Below, one piece after another: positions 15,017 to 23,986 of a DNA stretch of 64,000 bases; positions within the stretch are counted from its first letter, which is position 1; every line of letters begins with the position of its first letter. Origin of the DNA: Candidatus Omnitrophota bacterium (lineage in GTDB: Bacteria > Ratteibacteria > UBA8468 > B48-G9 > JAFGKM01); contig JAMWDI010000005.1 in NCBI GenBank assembly GCA_023819375.1, forward strand, positions 130,715 to 194,714, given 5' to 3'. The notes beneath the pieces are model-generated. The model searched no databases. It saw nothing but the letters and a program-made list of their open reading frames with translations, and was not told where the DNA came from. The position numbers were made by a program, and so were the translations under genes.

Positions 15017-15573
15017 AGGACATTCTGGCCATCCTATTGTTATTTTTGTTGCTATTTATATGTATCAAATTAATCAAATAGATTTTCTCCACAATTGGCG
15101 CCAAATCTATTTCTAAATTACATTTTTTTCTTTTCAAATTAACTTTCTTCTTACCTTGATTTTTAAGTATAACAATGGATTTGTCTTATATCTTTGTCCT
15201 CCATTTGCTCTACGTTTCTTTAATATCTATCCATTTGTAGATATTAACATTTTTAATAACTTATTCCTCCATTTTTGAAAATAACTATCACCTTGGATTC
15301 CTTAAATAAAAATGAAAACTTTACTCAAAAGAGAAATTAAAGTAAAATTAAAGTGGGAAAAAATTAATTTAAAAGAAGTGTTTTGTATTCAAGAAAAATA
15401 AATGAAAAGAAAAACTTTAAGAGTGAATTTTGCCTTTCATCAATCAAATTGTGTAAAATTTATTCAGAAAAAATTATGAATTATATTATAAGAAAATTAA
15501 AAGACAAAGAGTAAAAATTTAATTTTGACAAAAACGAGAAAATTGTTAAAACTAATTGATAAATAAAAATTTT

Positions 15574-15615
15574 GGAGGGGTCGCACAGTGGTCTAGTGCG
15601 GCGGATTGCTAATCC
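15574..15615 (+). repeat. 42-nt partial copy of the tRNA-Ser 5' half (acceptor + D-arm + anticodon arm): left attachment-site direct repeat (attL-like)
   Basis: GGAGGGGTCGCACAGTGGTCTAGTGCGGCGGATTGCTAATCC matches tRNA-Ser 23875..23916. The only mismatches are compensatory D-stem changes (GCAC/GTGC vs GCAT/ATGC). Similarity ends after the anticodon loop. Confidence 0.7.
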
Positions 15616-15682
15616 CTTTTAAGCCATTTCTCTAAATTCCTGAAAAATCACTAAATCCATTCTCTATCAAGCATTTTACCCA

Positions 15683-15737
15683 CTTTTTCACTTTTTCAAT
15701 TTTTTTCATTTTTTTTCATTTTTTCACATTTTTTTGG
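15683..15737. repeat. T-rich heptamer-like microsatellite (TTTTTCA)n with variable T-run length
   Basis: ctttttca ctttttca atttttttca ttttttttca ttttttca cattttttt, seen directly in the sequence. Located just inside the left end of the element. Confidence 0.5.
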
Positions 15738-15863
15738 TACAAATACGACACAACTATATATTGTATTTTTTTGTTAGAATTTTTCATTTTAAATACTATA
15801 TATTGTATACCACTAAACCCTTGAAAATTCTTGCTTAAAGAGATATAACTTAAGAAAACCCTT

Positions 15864-16580
15864 AATAGACAATGCTTTCCAAAACAAGTATAATTAAAAC
15901 CATTGATTGACAACAATTAAGGGAGACACCCCACCCTTAAGAACTATATATTTTTTGTAGGAGATAAAAAATGCTGTCCAGAGGGTATGTTAATGAAAAA
16001 CCATTGATAATCAATATAAGAGAGAGACCCTCCCCCCCTTAAGGACTATATATTTTGACTGGGTTAAAAATATAGTCCATTAGGGGAGGGAGTATAGAAT
16101 TCCTTGATAGACAATAAATAGAGGAGCCCCCCACCCTTAAGAACTATATATTTTGGAGACACTCCAGAAAAGCATATTTTTTACAAAATAGTAAATAAAT
16201 AATGCTGTTTAAAGGAGAATAGTTTAAATCCATTAATTGATAATAAACATAAATACTTCCACCCCTAAAGGACTATATATTTTTAAAAGTTATATTTTCA
16301 AATTAAATTATTTTTGATGTATAATAAACTTAAAAAGAAGAATTACATATGGTAAAAGAAACAATTATAAAATCAAAAAAGATAAATTTTTTGAAAAATA
16401 CTATTAAAGAAGCGATTTTAGAAGCGTTAGAAGAGATAGGACTTGCAAAAGCAATTGAAGAGGGTATAAAAACAAAAAATAAGAAAAAGTTAAAAATGCT
16501 GTCCAGAAGGTAGTATGTGAAAACTATTGATAATCAATATAAAAGGGATACCCCCACCCCTAAAGGACTATATATTTTGA
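15864..16580 (+). repeat. array of five degenerate ~55-90 bp repeat units (iteron-like), each = [AATGCTKTYY ~21 nt] CATTGAT(W)RWCAAYA .. RRGA-CCCCYCCC(Y)-TAARGRACTATATATTTTK
   Basis: Core copies at about 15901-15957, 16001-16057, 16102-16155, 16231-16285 and 16524-16579. Unit 2 is followed by an inverted arm (16066-16092), giving a ~65-bp imperfect palindrome over 16028..16092. Units 1, 2, 4 and 5 carry an upstream AATGCT box at a fixed distance of ~31-33 nt. Confidence 0.7.
16349..16513 (+). CDS. small Lys/Glu-rich ORF (54 aa) between repeat units 4 and 5; possible solo antitoxin-like / DNA-binding protein
   Basis: ATG at 16349, stop TAG at 16511-16513 (manual translation MVKETIIKSKKINFLKNTIKEAILEALEEIGLAKAIEEGIKTKNKKKLKMLSRR). 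Its last codons (AATGCTGTCCAGAAGGTAG) coincide with the AATGCT box that starts repeat unit 5. A truncated copy of the same 3' end occurs in unit 2. Confidence 0.3.
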   Translation: MVKETIIKSKKINFLKNTIKEAILEALEEIGLAKAIEEGIKTKNKKKLKMLSRR

Positions 16581-16618: not shown

Positions 16619-16828
16619 ATGAATATCAAAGTAAAAGAATTCTTGGTTGATAGAAAAGGAAGACCAAAAGGAGTAGTTTTGAATATTTCTGAATACAAAA
16701 AACTTTTAAAATTTATAGAAGATATACAAGATACACTTGACTTAAAAGAAGCAATAAAGACAAATAAAGGGTTTATTTCAGAGGAAGAGTTGTTAAAGAG
16801 ATTAAAACTAAAAGGGATTAATGTATAA
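16619..16828 (+). CDS. type II antitoxin (partner of the downstream RelE/ParE toxin)
   Basis: 69-aa ORF with GGAG RBS. Overlaps the toxin gene start by 8 bp, the typical TA organisation. Confidence 0.55.
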   Translation: MNIKVKEFLVDRKGRPKGVVLNISEYKKLLKFIEDIQDTLDLKEAIKTNKGFISEEELLKRLKLKGINV

Positions 16829-17072
16829 AGTAATTTTTGATGATAGAATAGAAAAAGATTTAAGTAAAATTCCTGCCAGAATAATAAAAAATATCTTCAA
16901 AAAAATAACTCTAATTAAAGAAAATCCATATAGTAAGGGAGTAAAAAAACTTATTGGTATAGAAGGTTATAGATTAAGGATAGGAAATTATAGAGTACTT
17001 TTCCAAATAGATGAAGAGACAAAAACAATAAAAATTTATAGGATAATCCATAGAAAAGATGCTTATAAATGA
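16821..17072 (+). CDS. type II toxin, RelE/ParE family
   Basis: 83 aa. Hallmark C-terminal motif GYRLRIGNYRVLFQIDEETKTIKIYRIIHRKD (YRhhY..d.....v.i..i.hR). Confidence 0.75.
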   Translation: MYKVIFDDRIEKDLSKIPARIIKNIFKKITLIKENPYSKGVKKLIGIEGYRLRIGNYRVLFQIDEETKTIKIYRIIHRKDAYK

Positions 17073-17443: not shown

Positions 17444-18784
17444 ATGAAACAAAAAATAAAACAATTTTTTTTATGGCTTCCACTGGTTCTTATTGGAGGG
17501 TTATTAATCATAGGACTTGTTTATGTATTAAAAGAAAACTTTTTGGGGACATCAATTTCAATAGGTTTCGTTGTTTTTAGTTATGCAATAGCAATAGTTA
17601 TGCCCGAGATAATAGAAGAACTTTCTCGGCCAACAAAAATTACTCTTGGTATAATAATTAGCCTATCTCTTACAGGAATAGGAGTTTTGTATTTACAAGA
17701 AAAATTTTTAGTTTTAATAGGATGCACTCTCGGGTTGTTAATGATAAGAAAAGTGTTGTTAGTGATAGGGAAAAACATACAAGCAATAAACGCAAAAATA
17801 AAGGAGGCAAACCCCAAAATTAAACAATGGTTGAAGAATATCTTTTTGCTAATAGGTATTATGACAAGGGAAAATATTTTTAAAAGAAATTTTACACACT
17901 CTAAAGAAACAGAAATGAAATGGGATGTTAAAGAATTATTTAAAATTGTGAATAAATCGGAGTTAAAATATAAAATACATGGAATAGTAGCAGTAGTTTA
18001 TATTTTGTTTTTAACTCTTTTCTTTAATATTCTCGATAACAAAATTCTCCATAATAGTTCATTCTGGTGGATTAGCATTTTATTTTTGGGAATATTTGTT
18101 TTAATAGGATTTATCCATACATTACTTGACACAATATCATGGCATGGAGTAAAAAATGGATTATTAAAATTTTTTGTTTATTACCCTCTTGTATTAGGAA
18201 TATGTCTGTTTCTACACGGAAGAGTAACAGAAATAACTATTGATGGAGAAATAATAGAACCAGAAGAAAATGACAAAATACCAGTGTCTGATGTAGGAAA
18301 GTTAATATTGCTTATGTATGGTTTGTTTATCTTTTATAGAGCAATTACCTTTTTTGTTTGGTGGGGAGAGCGCAAACAAGTTATAAATTGTTTAAAAAAA
18401 ACAATAATAGAACTATATCAATTTTTGACTAAATCATATAACTCAAAAAAAGAAATAATAAAAAATATAGAAGAGTTTCATCAAAAATTACAACATTGCC
18501 CTTTACCAACAATAGATACCTTGGTTAAGAAAGAAATAGCCAAATTTTATCTCCGTATTTTTGAATTCAGTGAAAGATTAAAAGAAATTATGGAGACATC
18601 TGACAAAAGGTTTATAAAAAATAAAAATGGAGTATTAACGATAGTTTATGGTGATGAAGAATATTCACTGGGATACCTATGTGAACCATATGTTAAAGAA
18701 ATAAAAGAAAATATAAAAAAATTAATGAAGACATATAGAATATCTAAATACGACATTGACATTCCTATGGTAAATTTTGAATAA
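17444..18784 (+). CDS. polytopic membrane protein (~8 predicted TM helices) with ~150-aa C-terminal soluble domain; unknown function (cargo of element)
   Basis: 446-aa ORF. Multiple long hydrophobic segments in the N-terminal 300 aa, charged C-terminal domain. No recognisable family. Confidence 0.45.
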   Translation: MKQKIKQFFLWLPLVLIGGLLIIGLVYVLKENFLGTSISIGFVVFSYAIAIVMPEIIEELSRPTKITLGIIISLSLTGIGVLYLQEKFLVLIGCTLGLLMIRKVLLVIGKNIQAINAKIKEANPKIKQWLKNIFLLIGIMTRENIFKRNFTHSKETEMKWDVKELFKIVNKSELKYKIHGIVAVVYILFLTLFFNILDNKILHNSSFWWISILFLGIFVLIGFIHTLLDTISWHGVKNGLLKFFVYYPLVLGICLFLHGRVTEITIDGEIIEPEENDKIPVSDVGKLILLMYGLFIFYRAITFFVWWGERKQVINCLKKTIIELYQFLTKSYNSKKEIIKNIEEFHQKLQHCPLPTIDTLVKKEIAKFYLRIFEFSERLKEIMETSDKRFIKNKNGVLTIVYGDEEYSLGYLCEPYVKEIKENIKKLMKTYRISKYDIDIPMVNFE

Positions 18785-19114
18785 AAACATGTTCCTTAAA
18801 ATAATAATATGGTTAAAAAATAATTGGTTTAAGGTTATAGTAATATTTCTTTTATTAAAAGCAGTAGGGGAAAATCCTTATTCATATTATCAATTTTTAA
18901 GATGGGTTGTTTCTCTTTCCAGTGGTTATTTGACTTATTCTTTTTTTCCTCAAAAAGATATGTCTGGGTTTGGATATTTGGTTTGATAACCATTTTATTC
19001 AATCCTGTGGAACCTTTTCATTTTTCAAAAGAAACCTGGCATATTTTAGATGTCATTGTAGTAATGGTTTACTTCTTTGTTCTTATTAAGAGGGAAACAA
19101 AACAACGAAAATGA
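18777..19114 (+). CDS. two overlapping small hydrophobic ORFs (69 and 70 aa; 18777..18986 and 18902..19114), possibly one frameshifted small membrane protein
   Basis: Both are TM-rich small ORFs in adjacent frames directly after the membrane protein gene. Coding status is uncertain. Confidence 0.25.
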
Positions 19115-19721
19115 ATAAGAAAAGAAAATAAATTAAATTTATCTTTAAGTTAGTTTGTGAACTAACTACTACTTTCTGTGGATATTTATAATTAAAACAT
19201 AATTACAACCACAGATGCTTAACTCTACTCCTACTTTGAAATAAAAAAGCAAAATACTATTCAAAATAACCTTCCCTTTATAGGCAAAATAATTTCCCCT
19301 GAAATTTTTCTGTGGGGTCATAACCAGTAGGCAAGGGTGGAAAGTATGGGGATTGGGGGGGTACTCCCCTATTCATATGTAGTAATTTTAATAAAAATGA
19401 ATTTTACTCCTCTATAGGGATATCAATGATTTTAGCGATTTTAACAAGGAAAAAAAGTCAAAAAAAGTAATACATTATATGAAGGGAAAAATAAAAGTGA
19501 AAGTTATTCATTTAGAGTTAATACATTACATAAAGAAAAGATAAAGATGGAAAAAAGATAGTAATTCCAATGAAGCAGAAGTTTTTTGAAAGAATATCAA
19601 TAATTTTGGTAGTTTTGAGGATAAGTTTAAAAGAAGATGATGACCTAAAAAGTAATATATTAATAAAAAAGTAAAAAAGAATGAAGTTTTAAACAAGGGG
19701 AAAAATAGAGAGGGAAAAAAT

Positions 19722-22053: not shown

Positions 22054-22473
22054 ATGAAAGTTTTAACTCCTATAGAAGCGATTAAAAAAAGATGTAAAGA
22101 ATGTCTGGGATATGAACAAGACCCAAAAGAATGTAATGGGAAAGAGACAGAGGGACTTATAGGAACACAGGAAGACATTATAGGCAGGAATTATGAATGT
22201 CCTCTATATCTCTATAGGACAGGAAATAGACCATTAAAGGAAGAGAAGTCAAGATTGAAAGAGTTAAATATTAAGATATTGTCTCCTATTAAAGCCATTA
22301 AGGAATATTGTTTAAGATGCTGTAATGGAGATAGGAAGTATTTAAAGAATTGTCCAAGCCAAGATTGTCCTTTATGGGAATATAGGTTAGGTAAAAATCC
22401 TCATTTAAAAGGAAAAAGAAAAAAACCCATAGGGTTAAGACCTATTAAAATAGGGGTAAAAAATGGTAGTTGA
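22054..22473 (+). CDS. tandem zinc-ribbon protein (two ~45-aa repeats: [LS]PI.AIK..C..C...(n)C.(n)C(P)L(Y/W).YR.G.NP)
   Basis: Internal duplication visible in the translation (LTPIEAIKKRCKECLG..YECPLYLYRTGNRP / LSPIKAIKEYCLRCCNG..QDCPLWEYRLGKNP). AGGAGG RBS. Basic C-terminal tail. Confidence 0.5.
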   Translation: MKVLTPIEAIKKRCKECLGYEQDPKECNGKETEGLIGTQEDIIGRNYECPLYLYRTGNRPLKEEKSRLKELNIKILSPIKAIKEYCLRCCNGDRKYLKNCPSQDCPLWEYRLGKNPHLKGKRKKPIGLRPIKIGVKNGS

Positions 22474-22563
22474 TGTGGGATTTTTTAAAAAATTAGACAC
22501 GATTTTTATCTGGTTAATAGTTTTATACTACCTAATAAAAAACAAAGGGATTTTTTTAAAAAA

Positions 22564-22788
22564 ATGAGTAATGAAATTAGAAAAAGATTACTAACAATTA
22601 AGGAAGCCAGTGAATATCTCGGAATATCAGTTAGAGGACTTTACTTAATGGTTTATAGAAGACAGATACCATTTGTTAAACTTGGAGGGAAAATAAGATT
22701 TGATGTTAAAAAACTTGATGAATGGATAGAGAAAAACACTATACCATCAGCAGAAGATTTGATTGAAAAAAAGATTATGTTAAAATAG
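22564..22788 (+). CDS. xis: excisionase / AlpA-Xis family HTH DNA-binding protein
   Basis: 74 aa. LTIKEASEYLGISVRGLYLMVYRRQIPFVKLGGKIRF is the MerR-like excisionase HTH pattern. Immediately upstream of the integrase. Confidence 0.7.
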   Translation: MSNEIRKRLLTIKEASEYLGISVRGLYLMVYRRQIPFVKLGGKIRFDVKKLDEWIEKNTIPSAEDLIEKKIMLK

Positions 22789-22794
22789 AATAAA

Positions 22795-23889
22795 ATGGGA
22801 AGAGTATTTCAAATAGGGAAAACTTGGTATATTGATGTATCCTATAAGGGGAAGAGAATAAGAGAAGCAGTTGGTAAAGATAAAAAACTTGCCATTACTA
22901 TACTAAAGAAAAAAGAGATTGAACTTATTGAGAACAGACATCTGGATATAAAAAGAAATGCAAAGGTTAAATTTTCTGATTTTTCAACGTACTTTCTTAA
23001 TACATACTCAAAAGTAAATAAAAAAAGTTGGAAGAGAGACCAATTAAGCATAAACCATTTAAATAAGTTTTTTGGTAGTAAATTTCTATATGAGATAACA
23101 AGTAAAGACATAGAAGAATATAAGAAAAAACGATTAGAAACAGGAATAAAAACATCTACCCTTAATAGGGAACTTGCTTGTTTAAAAACAATACTAAATA
23201 AAGCAGTAGAATGGGAATATTTAAAAGAGACACCACCAAAGATAAAACTATTTAAGGAAAATAACCAGAGAGTAAGATATTTAACAGAAAATGAAGCAAA
23301 AACTTTAATAGATTTATCCCCAGAACCATTAAAGGGTATAATAATAATTGCATTAAATACAGGTATGAGACAAGGAGAAATATTAAATCTTAAATGGAAA
23401 GATATTGATTTTAAGGAGAAAATAATTACCATATGGGATACAAAGAGCAAAGAAAAAAGATATATACCTATAAATGAGATTGTTTATAACACATTACTAA
23501 ATATTGATAGAAATCCAGAAAGTGAATATGTATTTTATGGAGAAGACCCTAAAAAACCTATTTCAGGAAGTTATATAACACATTCATTTAACAGGATAGT
23601 AAAAAAAGCAGGGATAAAAGATTTTAGATTTCACGATTTAAGACATACATTTGCAAGTTGGCTTGTAATGAAAGGAGTAAACTTGAAAACTATACAGGAA
23701 TTACTTGGACATAAAGACCAAAGAATGACGTTAAGATATTCACATTTATCCCCTGAAGTAAAAAAAGAAGCAGTGGAAATTCTATCAGAGAATTTTAATT
23801 TTGGCAAAAATACGGCAAAAGTCAATTTTAACAAAAATAAAAAAATTGTTAAAACCATTGATAGACAAAGGATTGGAGGGGTAGCATAG
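22795..23889 (+). CDS. int: tyrosine-type site-specific integrase
   Basis: N-terminal SAM-like/arm-binding region. Catalytic box HDLRHTFASWLVMKGVNLKTIQELLGHKDQRMTLRYSHL carries the R..H..R..Y tetrad. The 3' end overlaps the 5' end of tRNA-Ser by 15 nt. Confidence 0.85.
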   Translation: MGRVFQIGKTWYIDVSYKGKRIREAVGKDKKLAITILKKKEIELIENRHLDIKRNAKVKFSDFSTYFLNTYSKVNKKSWKRDQLSINHLNKFFGSKFLYEITSKDIEEYKKKRLETGIKTSTLNRELACLKTILNKAVEWEYLKETPPKIKLFKENNQRVRYLTENEAKTLIDLSPEPLKGIIIIALNTGMRQGEILNLKWKDIDFKEKIITIWDTKSKEKRYIPINEIVYNTLLNIDRNPESEYVFYGEDPKKPISGSYITHSFNRIVKKAGIKDFRFHDLRHTFASWLVMKGVNLKTIQELLGHKDQRMTLRYSHLSPEVKKEAVEILSENFNFGKNTAKVNFNKNKKIVKTIDRQRIGGVA

Positions 23890-23965
23890 TGGTCTAATGC
23901 GGCGGATTGCTAATCCGTTGGTCGGTCGAAAGGCCGGCCCGTGGGTTCGAATCCCACCCCCTCCG
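23875..23965 (+). tRNA. tRNA-Ser (anticodon GCU), class II with long variable arm
   Basis: Manual fold. Acceptor GGAGGGG/CCCCTCC; D-stem GCAT/ATGC; anticodon stem GCGGA/TCCGT with loop TTGCTAA; long variable arm; T-arm GTGGG-TTCGAAT-CCCAC; discriminator G. Confidence 0.85.
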
Positions 23966-23986
23966 CCGGAGCCCCGTCCTCCGAAG

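Follow-up and report, generated by a model that had tools for sequence, protein, structure and literature searches.

The repeat units at the left end of an integrated element in the window (the whole stretch of 64,000 nucleotides of DNA that was analyzed, from an Omnitrophota MAG) are all copies of one intergenic element, 65-90 bp long, which forms part of a family of small tRNA-gene-integrating elements. The initial annotation had claimed five copies of a composite unit on one strand only. Five units were indeed located on the + strand, from 15871 to 16579, with a common core CCCYWAAGRACTATATATTT that was observed 5 times against 0.02 expected from shuffles. Matches to the core CCNYWAAGRACTATATATTTT lie at 15934, 16036, 16134, 16263 and 16558, and none was found elsewhere in the 64-kb window. 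The components of the array are as follows.

15753-15766 (+): site a, a tail-only copy ACTATATATTGTAT
15795-15808 (+): site b, a tail-only copy ACTATATATTGTAT
15871-15957 (+): Unit 1 (U1), with box A, box B, C-tract and tail
15970-16057 (+): Unit 2 (U2), a full unit with perfect ATTGATAATCAAT, missing from the sister arrays L032 and L030
16066-16095 (-): inverted partial unit (tail and G-tract), which forms a ~65-bp palindrome with the U2 tail
16096-16155 (+): Unit 3 (U3), a short unit with box B, C-tract and tail and without box A; the inverted arm and U3 have box B in common
16201-16284 (+): Unit 4 (U4)
16495-16579 (+): Unit 5 (U5), a chimera whose front corresponds to the sister unit U5' and whose core corresponds to U6

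The unit is composed of box A, box B, a short G/C clamp (GGG-N-CCCCNCCC) and a near-invariant end, GGACTATATATTTT. The unit ends read ...ACTATATATTTT(G/T). All seven occurrences of ACTATATATT in the window fall on the + strand within 15753-16576, where 0.48 would be expected. As had been described, box A (AATGCTKTYY) is present in four units (U1, U2, U4 and U5), ~30 nt upstream of box B. Box A may be a degenerate inverted copy of the end GGACTATATATTTT; the box A-to-tail match in the full units is weak and below nhmmer detection. An additional box-B-like site was found at 15859. The mean pairwise identity among six paralogues was 88% in the tail, 77% in the C-tract, 68% in box B, 50% in the linker and 38% in the 3' flank. 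The spacings of the repeats are irregular (42, 148, 102, 98, 129 and 295 bp).

The ~65-bp palindrome that had been noticed at unit 2 is a real hairpin: the U2 tail and the inverted arm at 16066-16095 fold strongly as single-stranded DNA (-17.2 kcal/mol, z = -4.2). The palindromic modules have inverted arms of 25-30 bp, and no duplication is visible at their flanks. The inverted pairs are arranged tail to tail and resemble arms of 13-14 bp around a 9-bp spacer.

The array lies inside an integrated element and adjoins its left att site, as had also been proposed. The element is ~8.3 kb in length and extends from the 5' half of a tRNA-Ser gene (attL) to the integrase gene and an intact tRNA-Ser gene (attR). 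The features of its two ends are listed below.

15514-15573 (+): remnant of the 3' end of a previous integrase gene, to the left of attL; 15514-15600 aligns with 23817-23901 (80% over 87 nt, E = 4e-16)
15574-15615 (+): attL, 5' half of tRNA-Ser(GCT), within a sub-threshold tRNA match at 15574-15634
15659-15676 (-, opposite to the units): box-B-like site in the P' arm; the + strand reads TATCAAGCATTT, fits WATCAAN4TT and is 83% complementary to U3 box B
15674-15735 (+): phased T-tracts (TTTTTCA-type, period 8-10 bp), also present in the P' arms of the relatives L036, L037 and L048
15736-15753 (+): probable Int arm-type site pair GGTACAAATACGACACAA, which is GGCAAAAATACGGCAAAA in the sister arrays
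22564-22788 (+): HTH_17 excisionase/AlpA-like protein (Xis) of 74 aa, 53-58% conserved among relatives
22795-23889 (+): tyrosine integrase (Int) gene, of which the last 15 nt overlap the tRNA gene
23803-23820 (+): P-arm copy of the arm-type pair, GGCAAAAATACGGCAAAA, within the int coding region
23853-23868 (+): P-arm box-B site AACCATTGATAGACAA, oriented as in the units
23875-23967 (+): attR, intact tRNA-Ser(GCT), with the identity block at 23898-23916

The identity block common to attL and attR is 19 bp long (15597-15615, in the anticodon stem-loop, and 23898-23916). The phased T-tracts at 15674-15735 probably represent intrinsically bent DNA of the P' arm. Both arms of the window element and of relatives contain the tandem 11-bp arm-type pair GGCA(A/C)AA. 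We considered whether the tail is itself an arm-type site for Int and rejected this, as ACTATATATT occurs only on the P' side, whereas the GGCAMAA tandem is the motif common to both arms. Thus, the ends share the accessory attP architecture of tRNA-integrating elements, namely box B by the core in both arms, phased T-tracts and a tandem arm-type pair. However, the units reach 250-960 bp past the core, well beyond the arm-type sites, and the C-tract/tail core is missing from the P arm.

In the family, the backbone genes follow the order DUF5659, primase-type Zn finger, Rep-like ATPase with wHTH, TerS-like or double Zn-ribbon protein, HTH_17 Xis/AlpA-like protein and Int. The element of the window carries int, HTH_17, CHC2 Zn finger and Rep-like ATPase genes and encodes the double Zn-ribbon protein at 22054-22473; no TerS was recognized in it. 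A Terminase_4 TerS is encoded in L037, and weak Terminase_2-like proteins are encoded in L020, L022 and L048. The family is probably phage-satellite-like and undescribed, and occurs in Omnitrophota and neighbouring uncultivated lineages. PICI-like satellites depend on a helper, are smaller than ~20 kb and combine int, an alpA/xis-type regulator, pri-rep and terS without virion genes. With PICI/P4-like satellites, the carrier shares a size of 5-10 kb, int, an xis/alpA-like gene, a primase/rep module, TerS in some members, the lack of structural genes and the link to a tRNA gene; it differs from them in having no known helper phage and in its host, an uncultivated Omnitrophota lineage. IMG/VR searches with the Rep protein, the Int protein and the second core variant returned nothing related, and nothing relevant was found in the literature on DUF5659 or on integrative elements of Omnitrophota.

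The backbone of related elements contains the unit once or twice, in inverted orientation, at the point where the replication/packaging genes meet the xis-int operon. The L025 copy separates the Rep stop codon from the Zn-ribbon gene. L022 has two copies between the TerS-like gene and xis, and L020 and L048 each have one copy ahead of xis or its upstream gene. L048 has a further copy immediately inside the P' arm, past the arm sites and 20 nt before a TATAAT. This left-end copy has become an array in the lineage of the window. The core of the unit is conserved in the window element, L020, L022, L025 and L048, and GGACTATATATTTT was kept in 10 of the 12 copies, although the carrier Int proteins are only 64-76% identical. 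The unit is accordingly not unique to the locus in the window and constitutes a conserved component of the element family. No recognizable unit was found in the relatives L036, L037 and L047; therefore, it is not essential to the family.

The initial annotation had named a dispersed MITE/REP-type repeat of the genome as the alternative to a repeat tied to the element. Host DNA gave no copy, neither in the ~55 kb that the window contains nor in the flanks of L025-L028. Exact scans with the core pattern gave 9 matches in GTDB genomes, 9 in JGI metagenomes and 0 in IMG/VR; all of them were single, as expected by chance, and none was accompanied by the wider unit. A blastn search with the array gave no match among PLSDB plasmids and GenBank phages. 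Many contigs break off within the element, and the unit may contribute to this.

The units separate two unrelated RelB/ParE toxin-antitoxin (TA) cassettes and several near-empty intervals.

16349-16513 (+): truncated RelB-like antitoxin of TA cassette 1 (54-aa ORF, weak RelB-like match); the ParE-like toxin is deleted here
16619-17072 (+): TA cassette 2, with a RelB/Phd-like antitoxin (16619-16828) and a ParE/RelE-like toxin (16821-17072)

At the DNA level, the two cassettes are dissimilar, and the identity of their toxins is limited to 46% over 43 aa. At the place of cassette 1, L031 retains a 56-aa antitoxin and a ParE_toxin fragment; the decay stage of this cassette thus differs between L031, L030/L032 and the window. 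It had been claimed that box A coincides with the last codons of the 54-aa ORF. The overlap exists in U5. However, it does not represent a conserved coding relation, because the ORF stops earlier in L030 and L032, where box A is non-coding.

Among the arrays of the window, L032 and L030, three indels of unit size (102, ~99 and ~96 bp) were found, the ends of which fall in the conserved core. These indels, together with one chimeric unit, show that the array changes by unequal recombination within the ~30-bp core. The variation among the sister arrays consists mostly of losses, and the order of the cassettes is identical in all variants. A 190-bp composite of U2, the arm and U3 is 88% identical to a composite of L030 (U5', arm and U6) at another position of the array. 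Since units are 88% alike while the adjacent cassettes are unrelated in DNA, units and cassettes were not simply co-duplicated. In L030, a degraded tail and a relic of TA cassette 2 were detected outside the element. Two spacers were inspected for gene relics. The U1-U2 spacer resembles an SD+ATG relic, and 17 of 2000 shuffles scored equally well. The similarity of the U3-U4 spacer to the 3' end of a toxin gene was not significant (112 of 2000 shuffles were equally good). Of the roles suggested in the initial annotation, scars of cassette turnover with duplication at a defined site come closest to these results: the units separate RelB/ParE cassettes in differing decay, and sister arrays differ by whole units.

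The units were also analyzed for structure and for expression signals. With RNAalifold, the + strand gave 0 base pairs and the - strand gave -1.68 kcal/mol. Single units folded like shuffled sequence (z from -0.7 to +1.4), and searches of Rfam at the gathering and E-value thresholds gave no match at E <0.2. In single-stranded DNA folds of the four full units on both strands, z was between -0.9 and +0.3 in seven of the eight cases, the exception being the - strand of U1 (z = -2.8). One promoter candidate was found at the start of the array.

15866-15894 (+): sigma-70-like promoter candidate TAGACA-17-TATAAT (11/12), which points into the array, overlaps U1 box A and is conserved in L030 and L032

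When the tails were scanned for sigma-70 promoters, only U1 (GAGACA-18-TATATT) and site a (TTGGTA-17-TATATT) passed, each with 9/12. The total equalled the shuffle expectation (11 found, 11.5 expected), and these sites are not conserved in all units. No canonical -35 box was found with the tail on either strand. The intrinsic-terminator scan gave no hit on the + strand and six overlapping hits on the - strand in U2, U3 and U5 (0.8 expected); these terminator-like hairpins are not kept in L025, L022 and L048. Small peptides encoded by the units were rejected, since the frames are not conserved and those of U4 and U5 stop after 5-6 codons. The bottom strand of box B in U1, U2, U3 and U5 and in both att arms fits the IHF-type pattern WATCAAN4TT (consensus reference WATCAANNNNTTR). 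Because the pattern is common in the AT-rich window (54 occurrences against 42 expected), we treat box B as an IHF site as a lead only. Positions in the arms that flank the att core are the usual place for bending-protein sites, and box-B-like sites were found to flank the core in both arms in the window element, L036, L037 and L048.

Based on these results, our leading though tentative interpretation is that the unit is a protein-bound intergenic boundary element, similar to Correia elements and BIME-1 but limited to this family of mobile elements, with a biochemical role that is inferred. We propose that the unit acts as double-stranded DNA, not as RNA, and that a protein bound to it would mark the boundary between modules with independent expression. 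Beside the GC clamp, the DNA would have an IHF/HU-type bend, and the TATA(T/G)T end could contribute a -10-like box. The bound unit would then set or insulate the transcription of the adjacent cassette or operon, and the conserved core would also serve as portable homology for the loss, gain and swap of cassettes and modules. We favor this interpretation because the repeat is real and local, because every copy sits at a module boundary, because the constraint falls on the core (tail 88%, linker 50%, flank 38%), and because the cassettes differ far more from each other than the units do. U4, for example, lies 5' of the cassette 1 promoter, and U5 lies 3' of the ParE fragment of cassette 1 and 5' of the TATAAT of cassette 2. 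It is further favored because the unit behaves neither as RNA nor as a single-strand hairpin and because box-B-like sites flank the att core in both arms. However, part of the high conservation of the unit could result from recent exchange between elements and not from selection. Since the backbone copies are inverted relative to those of the array, a single strand-specific role is hard to fit.

A related candidate was the promoter/operator of the TA operon itself. It was weakened by an 84%-identical cassette in L039, which has the same -10 region and no unit, and by the far greater likeness of the units than of the cassettes.

Correia elements are known to carry IHF sites, to give rise to promoters at their ends and to act as hot spots of recombination (PMC2649163). 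These elements (CREE) are intergenic, ~70-157 bp long, with inverted ends that bear a TATAG-type -10-like box, and the long forms have a central IHF site (PMC2649163). The palindromic module of the window, which consists of an inverted arm, box B, C-tract and tail, shares this layout with the CREE of Neisseria. However, CREE have no sequence similarity to the units, no target duplication was seen here, and most units are weakly palindromic (z ~0). Furthermore, CREE are present in 100-250 chromosomal copies with TA target duplications, whereas 5-8 copies are found here, in one mobile-element family, clustered and in one orientation. BIME-1 (RIP) is the IHF-containing subtype of BIME, with the arrangement REP-IHF-REP. 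BIMEs pair REPs with binding sites for host proteins (PMC3333891, PMC2817692). With the BIME-1/RIP of E. coli, the unit would share GC-rich arms around a site for a host bending protein at gene boundaries, that is, a protein-binding punctuation (PMC3333891, PMC2817692). REPs are stable stem-loops of 20-40 bp with a GTAG/CGTC tag that number >100 and are associated with RAYT transposases; no such feature was seen in the units. Unlike for Correia and REP elements, no high copy number, target-site duplication or candidate transposase was found, and this speaks against the boundary interpretation.

Among the alternatives, an operator or decoy array for a family-conserved protein of the element, likeliest the 74-aa HTH_17 Xis/AlpA-like protein or Int, survives best, and we consider it unlikely. 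The recognition sequence would be GGACTATATATTTT with sites a and b; the copies near xis-int would mediate autoregulation, and the array would regulate genes at the left end or titrate the protein. Int (64-76%) and Xis (53-63%) are the sole well-conserved proteins among the unit-bearing elements, in which the TerS/Zn-ribbon slot is swapped. The backbone copies lie 50-95 nt ahead of the next gene of the xis-int operon, and sites a and b lie immediately next to the P' arm-type sites. In addition, the putative recognition helix/wing of Xis is KALY / FDK in L036, L037 and L047, which have no unit, and KGLY / FDI in the unit-bearing elements. However, these Xis differences track phylogeny, so that the correlation is confounded. 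Moreover, the region upstream of xis in the window (22474-22563) contains no unit, the motif is missing from the P arm, and the spacing of ~100-300 bp is unlike known excisionase or regulator arrays; Cox and Apl boxes are spaced by ~10 bp.

Still less likely, in our estimation, are neutral leftovers, that is, tandem duplication of [unit + cassette] followed by decay of the cassettes, with spare units that have no function. The different decay stages of cassette 1 (L031, L030/L032 and the window), the prevalence of losses between lineages, the SD+ATG-like U1-U2 spacer (17/2000 shuffles) and the degraded tail and TA relic outside the element in L030 are consistent with this. However, even decay would be expected, yet the core is 88% identical against 38-50% for the linker and flanks. 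The units are also 88% alike beside cassettes that are unrelated in DNA, and distant relatives share the core.

We assign a low probability to cassette-docking sites, functional analogues of attC/attI at which the tyrosine recombinase of the element or another one would insert and excise cassettes near attP. The same low probability applies to the array as a non-integron cassette platform, with site-specific exchange by its own tRNA-type tyrosine integrase or a host recombinase. As in integron attC/VCR arrays, similar sites of ~85 bp point in one direction and alternate with small, dissimilar cassettes close to a tyrosine recombinase gene; some of these cassettes are TA pairs that have promoters of their own, and the cassette content varies between strains. 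In the circular form, the array would start ~250 bp from attP and int. The inverted tail-to-tail pairs (13-14 bp arms, 9-bp spacer) and the tail-bearing relic of TA cassette 2 that L030 has outside the element would also fit docking. In contrast to integrons, no attC fold was observed (single units form no hairpin, z ~0), and neither a GTTRRRY core, an R''/L'' pattern nor an IntI-type integrase was seen; the sole integrase, ~7 kb from the array, is a tyrosine recombinase that targets a tRNA gene and has an arm-binding N-domain. The cassette order is fixed in all variants, homologous recombination suffices to explain all indels, with the U5 chimera junction inside homology, and the homologous cassette of L039 has no unit. 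The initial annotation had stated that the array has neither CRISPR nor classical attC architecture, and our analysis agrees; CRISPR repeats are near-identical, 24-47 bp long and separated by spacers of similar length, whereas the units are degenerate and spaced by 98-295 bp.

A pac/cos-like packaging signal for the terminase of a helper phage, with a bending-protein site and repeated terminase boxes, appears just as improbable as docking sites. In lambda cosB (R3-I1-R2), a bending-protein site is combined with repeated terminase-binding boxes. The satellite-like gene content of the family (int, xis/alpA-like and pri/rep genes, no capsid genes, TerS in L037 and Terminase_2-like proteins in L020, L022 and L048) agrees with such a signal. 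So do the position of the backbone units beside the TerS-like/Zn-ribbon slot, the retention of the sequence while the Reps differ, and the palindromic modules with a central box B between inverted arms. However, the core is common to elements with non-homologous TerS-like and Zn-ribbon proteins. Five to six direct copies in 700 bp, and the inverted copies in L048, would be odd for a directional site, and no IMG/VR or GenBank phage match indicated a helper. Binding sites for the Zn-ribbon protein, which had been among the first proposals, are contradicted by L020, L022 and L048, which have the unit and lack this protein.

Rep-binding iterons for replication or copy-number control, another early proposal, are very improbable. 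The repeats are direct and in one orientation, the element replicates with a wHTH Rep-like protein, and the P4 crr (cis replication region), which lies far from ori, is a precedent for distant iterons. However, the core is kept near-identical in L020, L022 and L025, whose Rep proteins are at most 27% identical to that of the window over ~150 aa. Furthermore, plasmid and satellite iterons are regular repeats of ~17-22 bp near rep by an AT-rich region, whereas the units are irregularly spaced (98-295 bp) and lie ~4 kb upstream of rep.

The least probable explanation is that the units encode small structured RNAs, as the initial annotation had suggested, or an RNA antitoxin array: the promoter-like site at 15866-15894 points into the array and the repeats lie upstream of TA genes, but no consensus structure was found on either strand, single units had z values of -0.7 to +1.4, Rfam gave no match at E <0.2, and, unlike type III ToxI-like systems with tandem identical repeats of ~36 nt upstream of a ToxN-type endoRNase, the repeats are neither tandem nor identical and the toxins are of type II (ParE/RelE).

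The units define a conserved cis-element of small integrative elements whose family is undescribed and probably phage-satellite-like, and the comparison of strains directly shows this cis-element driving the gain and loss of TA cassettes. The C-tract followed by the core GGACTATATATTTT is a usable marker for finding such elements. If the unit is a protein-bound insulator or promoter module, a punctuation of the REP/Correia type would have evolved in a mobile element and not in the host chromosome. If it is a cassette-docking site or a helper-phage signal, it would offer a way into the satellite biology of a phylum without cultured representatives. If the cassette platform were true, the integron principle would have been invented independently in an uncultivated phylum.

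Three further resemblances were noted. The likeness of CCCACCCC to the 3' end of tRNA-Ser was judged to be due to chance. The likeness of site a to a T7-type promoter was judged in the same way, and site a differs in L030 and L032. The (A/G)GGAC motif resembles the AlpA binding element GGGACG of P. aeruginosa (PMC9371919); the AlpA protein of P. aeruginosa is much larger and Q-like, unlike the 74-aa HTH_17 protein encoded here.

The core sequence CCNYWAAGRACTATATATTTT was found five times in the window against 0.02 expected from shuffles, and all other sequence of the 64-kb window is without a copy. The shorter ACTATATATT was found seven times, always on the + strand and within 15753-16576 (0.48 expected). 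The array of five + strand units, which the initial annotation had described at 15864-16580, is real and above chance. A full unit consists of box A, box B, a C-tract and a tail, in this order.

Repeat units of the array
15871-15957, + strand: U1
15970-16057, + strand: U2
16096-16155, + strand: U3, without box A
16201-16284, + strand: U4
16495-16579, + strand: U5
15753 and 15795, + strand: sites a and b (ACTATATATTGTAT), tail-only, the two extra copies of ACTATATATT, nearer the att site than the five units

The same repeat families were returned by repeat finding, together with an inverted arm at 16066-16095. With the tail of U2, this arm forms the ~65-bp palindrome reported earlier at this unit, which folds at -17.2 kcal/mol (z = -4.2). 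Conservation differs strongly along the unit. Among six paralogues, pairwise identity averages 88% in YWAAGRAC plus the tail, 77% in the C-tract and 68% in box B, versus 50% in the linker and 38% just 3' of the tail. The unit core is under constraint.

The array forms the left end of an integrated element of ~8.3 kb.

Features of the att sites
15574-15615: tRNA-Ser(GCT) 5' half; its 19-bp block (anticodon stem-loop) is common to the intact tRNA-Ser
23875-23967: intact tRNA-Ser, with the same 19-bp block
22795-23889: integrase ORF, 3' end inside the tRNA-Ser gene
15736-15753 and 23803-23820: tandem 11-bp pair GGCA(A/C)AAATA(C/T)GGCA(A/C)AA, in both att arms; also in the compared loci L020, L022, L036, L037 and L048

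The last integrase codons, GGVA*, coincide with the tRNA acceptor and D-arm (window 22795-23967). The integrated element supplies the 5' half of the sole intact tRNA copy and, with it, any promoter that this tRNA has. This arrangement is kept in all relatives examined (L020, L022, L025, L036 and L037). Left of attL, at 15514-15600, the 3'-end relic of an older integrase and a tRNA 5' half are 80% identical over 87 nt to 23817-23901, implying that another element, since deleted, once occupied this tRNA. The att-arm layout (core, box-B-like site, phased T-tracts and the tandem pair) is conserved in the window and relatives. Since the GGCA(A/C)AA pair is present in both arms, it is probably the Int arm-type site. 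The unit tail was ruled out in this role, the pair being what both arms carry. The relatives' version of the pair, TGGCACAAATATGGCA, also resembles a sigma-54 -24/-12 element.

NCBI assigns the integrase to a Candidatus Omnitrophica MAG. The genes 5' of int encode an HTH_17 Xis/AlpA-like protein, a double Zn-ribbon protein and a P-loop protein of 500 aa with wHTH; a primase-type CHC2 Zn-finger protein and a DUF5659 protein are also encoded here. In the left part are a RelB/ParE toxin-antitoxin (TA) pair, small ORFs and the gene of a 446-aa membrane protein. This multi-pass protein (17444-18784), which has no family match, and the small DUF6804 protein that follows it (18902-19114) are both missing from the sister element L030, and may be cargo or defence genes. 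The stretch 5' of the DUF5659-primase-rep operon (window 19250-19720; L030 4060-4612) contains inverted box-B-like sites (19421, 19595), C-rich/CTATAG motifs and repeats spaced 174-214 bp; it may be a replication origin or operon control region.

A scan for the exact core through GTDB genomes, JGI metagenomes and IMG/VR yielded nothing beyond isolated chance matches that lack the wider unit, and blastn against plasmids and phages found nothing. With a unit profile, nhmmer over all fetched loci detected copies in related elements with integrases 64-76% identical to that of the window. In the sequence searched, which included ~55 kb of host DNA in the window, the unit is part of the element family and not a repeat of the host genome.

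Unit copies in related elements
L025: a complete unit (box A, box B, C-tract, tail), in the gap from the Rep stop codon to the Zn-ribbon gene
L022: two copies, flanked by a TerS-like gene and xis
L020 and L048: one copy each, 5' of xis or of the gene upstream of xis
L048, second copy: C-tract/tail, + oriented, just past the P' arm-type sites, 20 nt before TATAAT

Every backbone copy in the relatives is on the opposite strand. In L036, the P'-arm position holds only a diverged form, GGGG...CCCCCCC...CTATATCT. GGACTATATATTTT is retained in 10 of the 12 aligned copies. Among these relatives, Rep (compared for L020, L022 and L025) is at most 27% identical to that of the window, Int 67-76% and Xis 53-63%. 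The gene in the rep-xis slot varies between relatives: a double Zn-ribbon protein occupies the slot in the window (22054-22473), L025 and L036, a small terminase (TerS, Terminase_4) in L037, and HTH proteins with weak Terminase_2 similarity in L020, L022 and L048. These exchanges speak against the Zn-ribbon protein as the binding partner once proposed. They also suggest a family of phage satellites, with the slot as a swappable packaging or hijack module.

By exact look-up of the antitoxin sequence, four further contigs with sister arrays were found. In L031, the U4-U5 interval encodes a RelB-like antitoxin of 56 aa together with a fragment matching ParE_toxin (27.3 bits, profile positions 30-89); in the window, it holds a truncated 54-aa antitoxin alone. 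Box A of U5 does overlap the last codons of this ORF, as initially annotated, but the overlap is accidental, because the ORF ends earlier still in L030 and L032. Past U5 lies a second RelB/ParE pair (cassette 2) with its promoter. The two cassettes are unrelated at the DNA level (toxins 46% identical over 43 aa), whereas the 190-bp U2+arm+U3 composite is 88% identical to U5'+arm+U6, sited between the cassettes in L030 and L032. Furthermore, L039 (1-712) carries a cassette 2 homologue (84% aa identity) with the same -10 region and without the unit. Therefore, the units are neither simply a TA-operon regulatory region nor merely co-duplicated with the cassettes. The L039 homologue directly follows a different tyrosine recombinase gene. 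In L030, a degraded unit tail and a relic of the cassette 2 start (2040-2216) lie to the left of attL, external to the element, with a host ABC-transporter gene on one side and the native tRNA promoter (TTGATA-17-TATAAT) on the other.

The arrays of the window, L032 and L030 are ~95% identical and are distinguished by three indels (102, ~99 and ~96 bp). Each is the gain or loss of one repeat period, with end points within the C-tract/tail. U5 of the window is a recombinant, because the front of U5' is joined to the C-tract of U6. Cassette order is the same in all arrays compared. This is the product expected if direct repeats undergo slippage or unequal homologous recombination, and a site-specific recombinase, though possible, is not required. 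The idea of scars from serial cassette turnover was partly right. The recombination that reshapes the array acts on the unit core.

The unit is a double-stranded DNA element that is conserved and specific to this family, and every copy is at a module boundary: between cassettes, between rep/packaging and xis-int, or between an att arm and left-end genes. Our preferred, tentative reading is a protein-bound boundary element. A bending protein, plus RNA polymerase or an element protein, would bind the unit, and the bound unit would punctuate transcription between modules. Box B fits WATCAAN4TT on the bottom strand, as do the copies in both att arms; this motif is frequent in such AT-rich DNA (54 found versus 42 expected), and box B as a bending-protein site is a lead only. 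A good sigma-70-like site, TAGACA-17-TATAAT (15866-15894), is directed into the array; the total of sigma-70-like matches equals the shuffle expectation, and no conserved -35 was found in the units. No terminator was found on the + strand. Six overlapping terminator-like matches lie on the - strand in three units (0.8 expected), a feature that the relatives do not keep.

An unlikely alternative is that the array serves the conserved Xis/AlpA-like protein or Int as operators or as a decoy, and neutral leftovers are slightly less likely again. Cassette-docking recombination sites are improbable; single units have no single-strand hairpin and no GTTRRRY core, so classical attC architecture does not fit, as had been noted. 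A pac/cos-like signal is improbable to the same degree. Rep iterons are very improbable, since the unit is conserved while Rep is so dissimilar. Least credible is the proposed family of structured RNAs: no consensus structure was found on the + strand (-1.68 kcal/mol only on the - strand), shuffled sequences fold as well as single units of the window, L025, L022 and L048 do (z -0.7 to +1.4), and Rfam gave no match.

Our literature search found no paper on DUF5659 and no relevant one on Omnitrophota integrative elements; the element family and its boundary repeat appear to be undescribed. The nearest functional analogues of the unit would be Correia elements and BIME-1/RIP repeats. In Correia elements, the inverted ends carry a TATAG -10-like box and an IHF site lies centrally; these elements make promoters and are recombination hot spots (PMC2649163); BIME-type repeats have been described (PMC3333891, PMC2817692). 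However, the unit differs from these families in copy number, dispersal, stem-loop structure and associated transposase. In outline, though, this kind of repeat is known: short and intergenic, it binds protein, promotes recombination and stands in an array with TA cassettes.

Other repeats were observed in the relatives. The closest, L020 (76% Int identity), has four copies of a different motif, CTCGCTATATATAAGGGG(G), at its left end (427-800), upstream of a - strand gene; on the opposite strand, this motif reads as a C-tract followed by TATATA, resembling the window core. A perfect 66-bp tandem duplication in L037 (5440-5571) includes a TTGACA box and lies immediately 5' of the DUF5659 gene; C-tracts of the form CCCATCCCCTA come before it. 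Contigs from several samples (L001, L022 and L025-L028) begin or stop within the element or a short way ahead of int, where assembly may be interrupted by repeats or strain heterogeneity.
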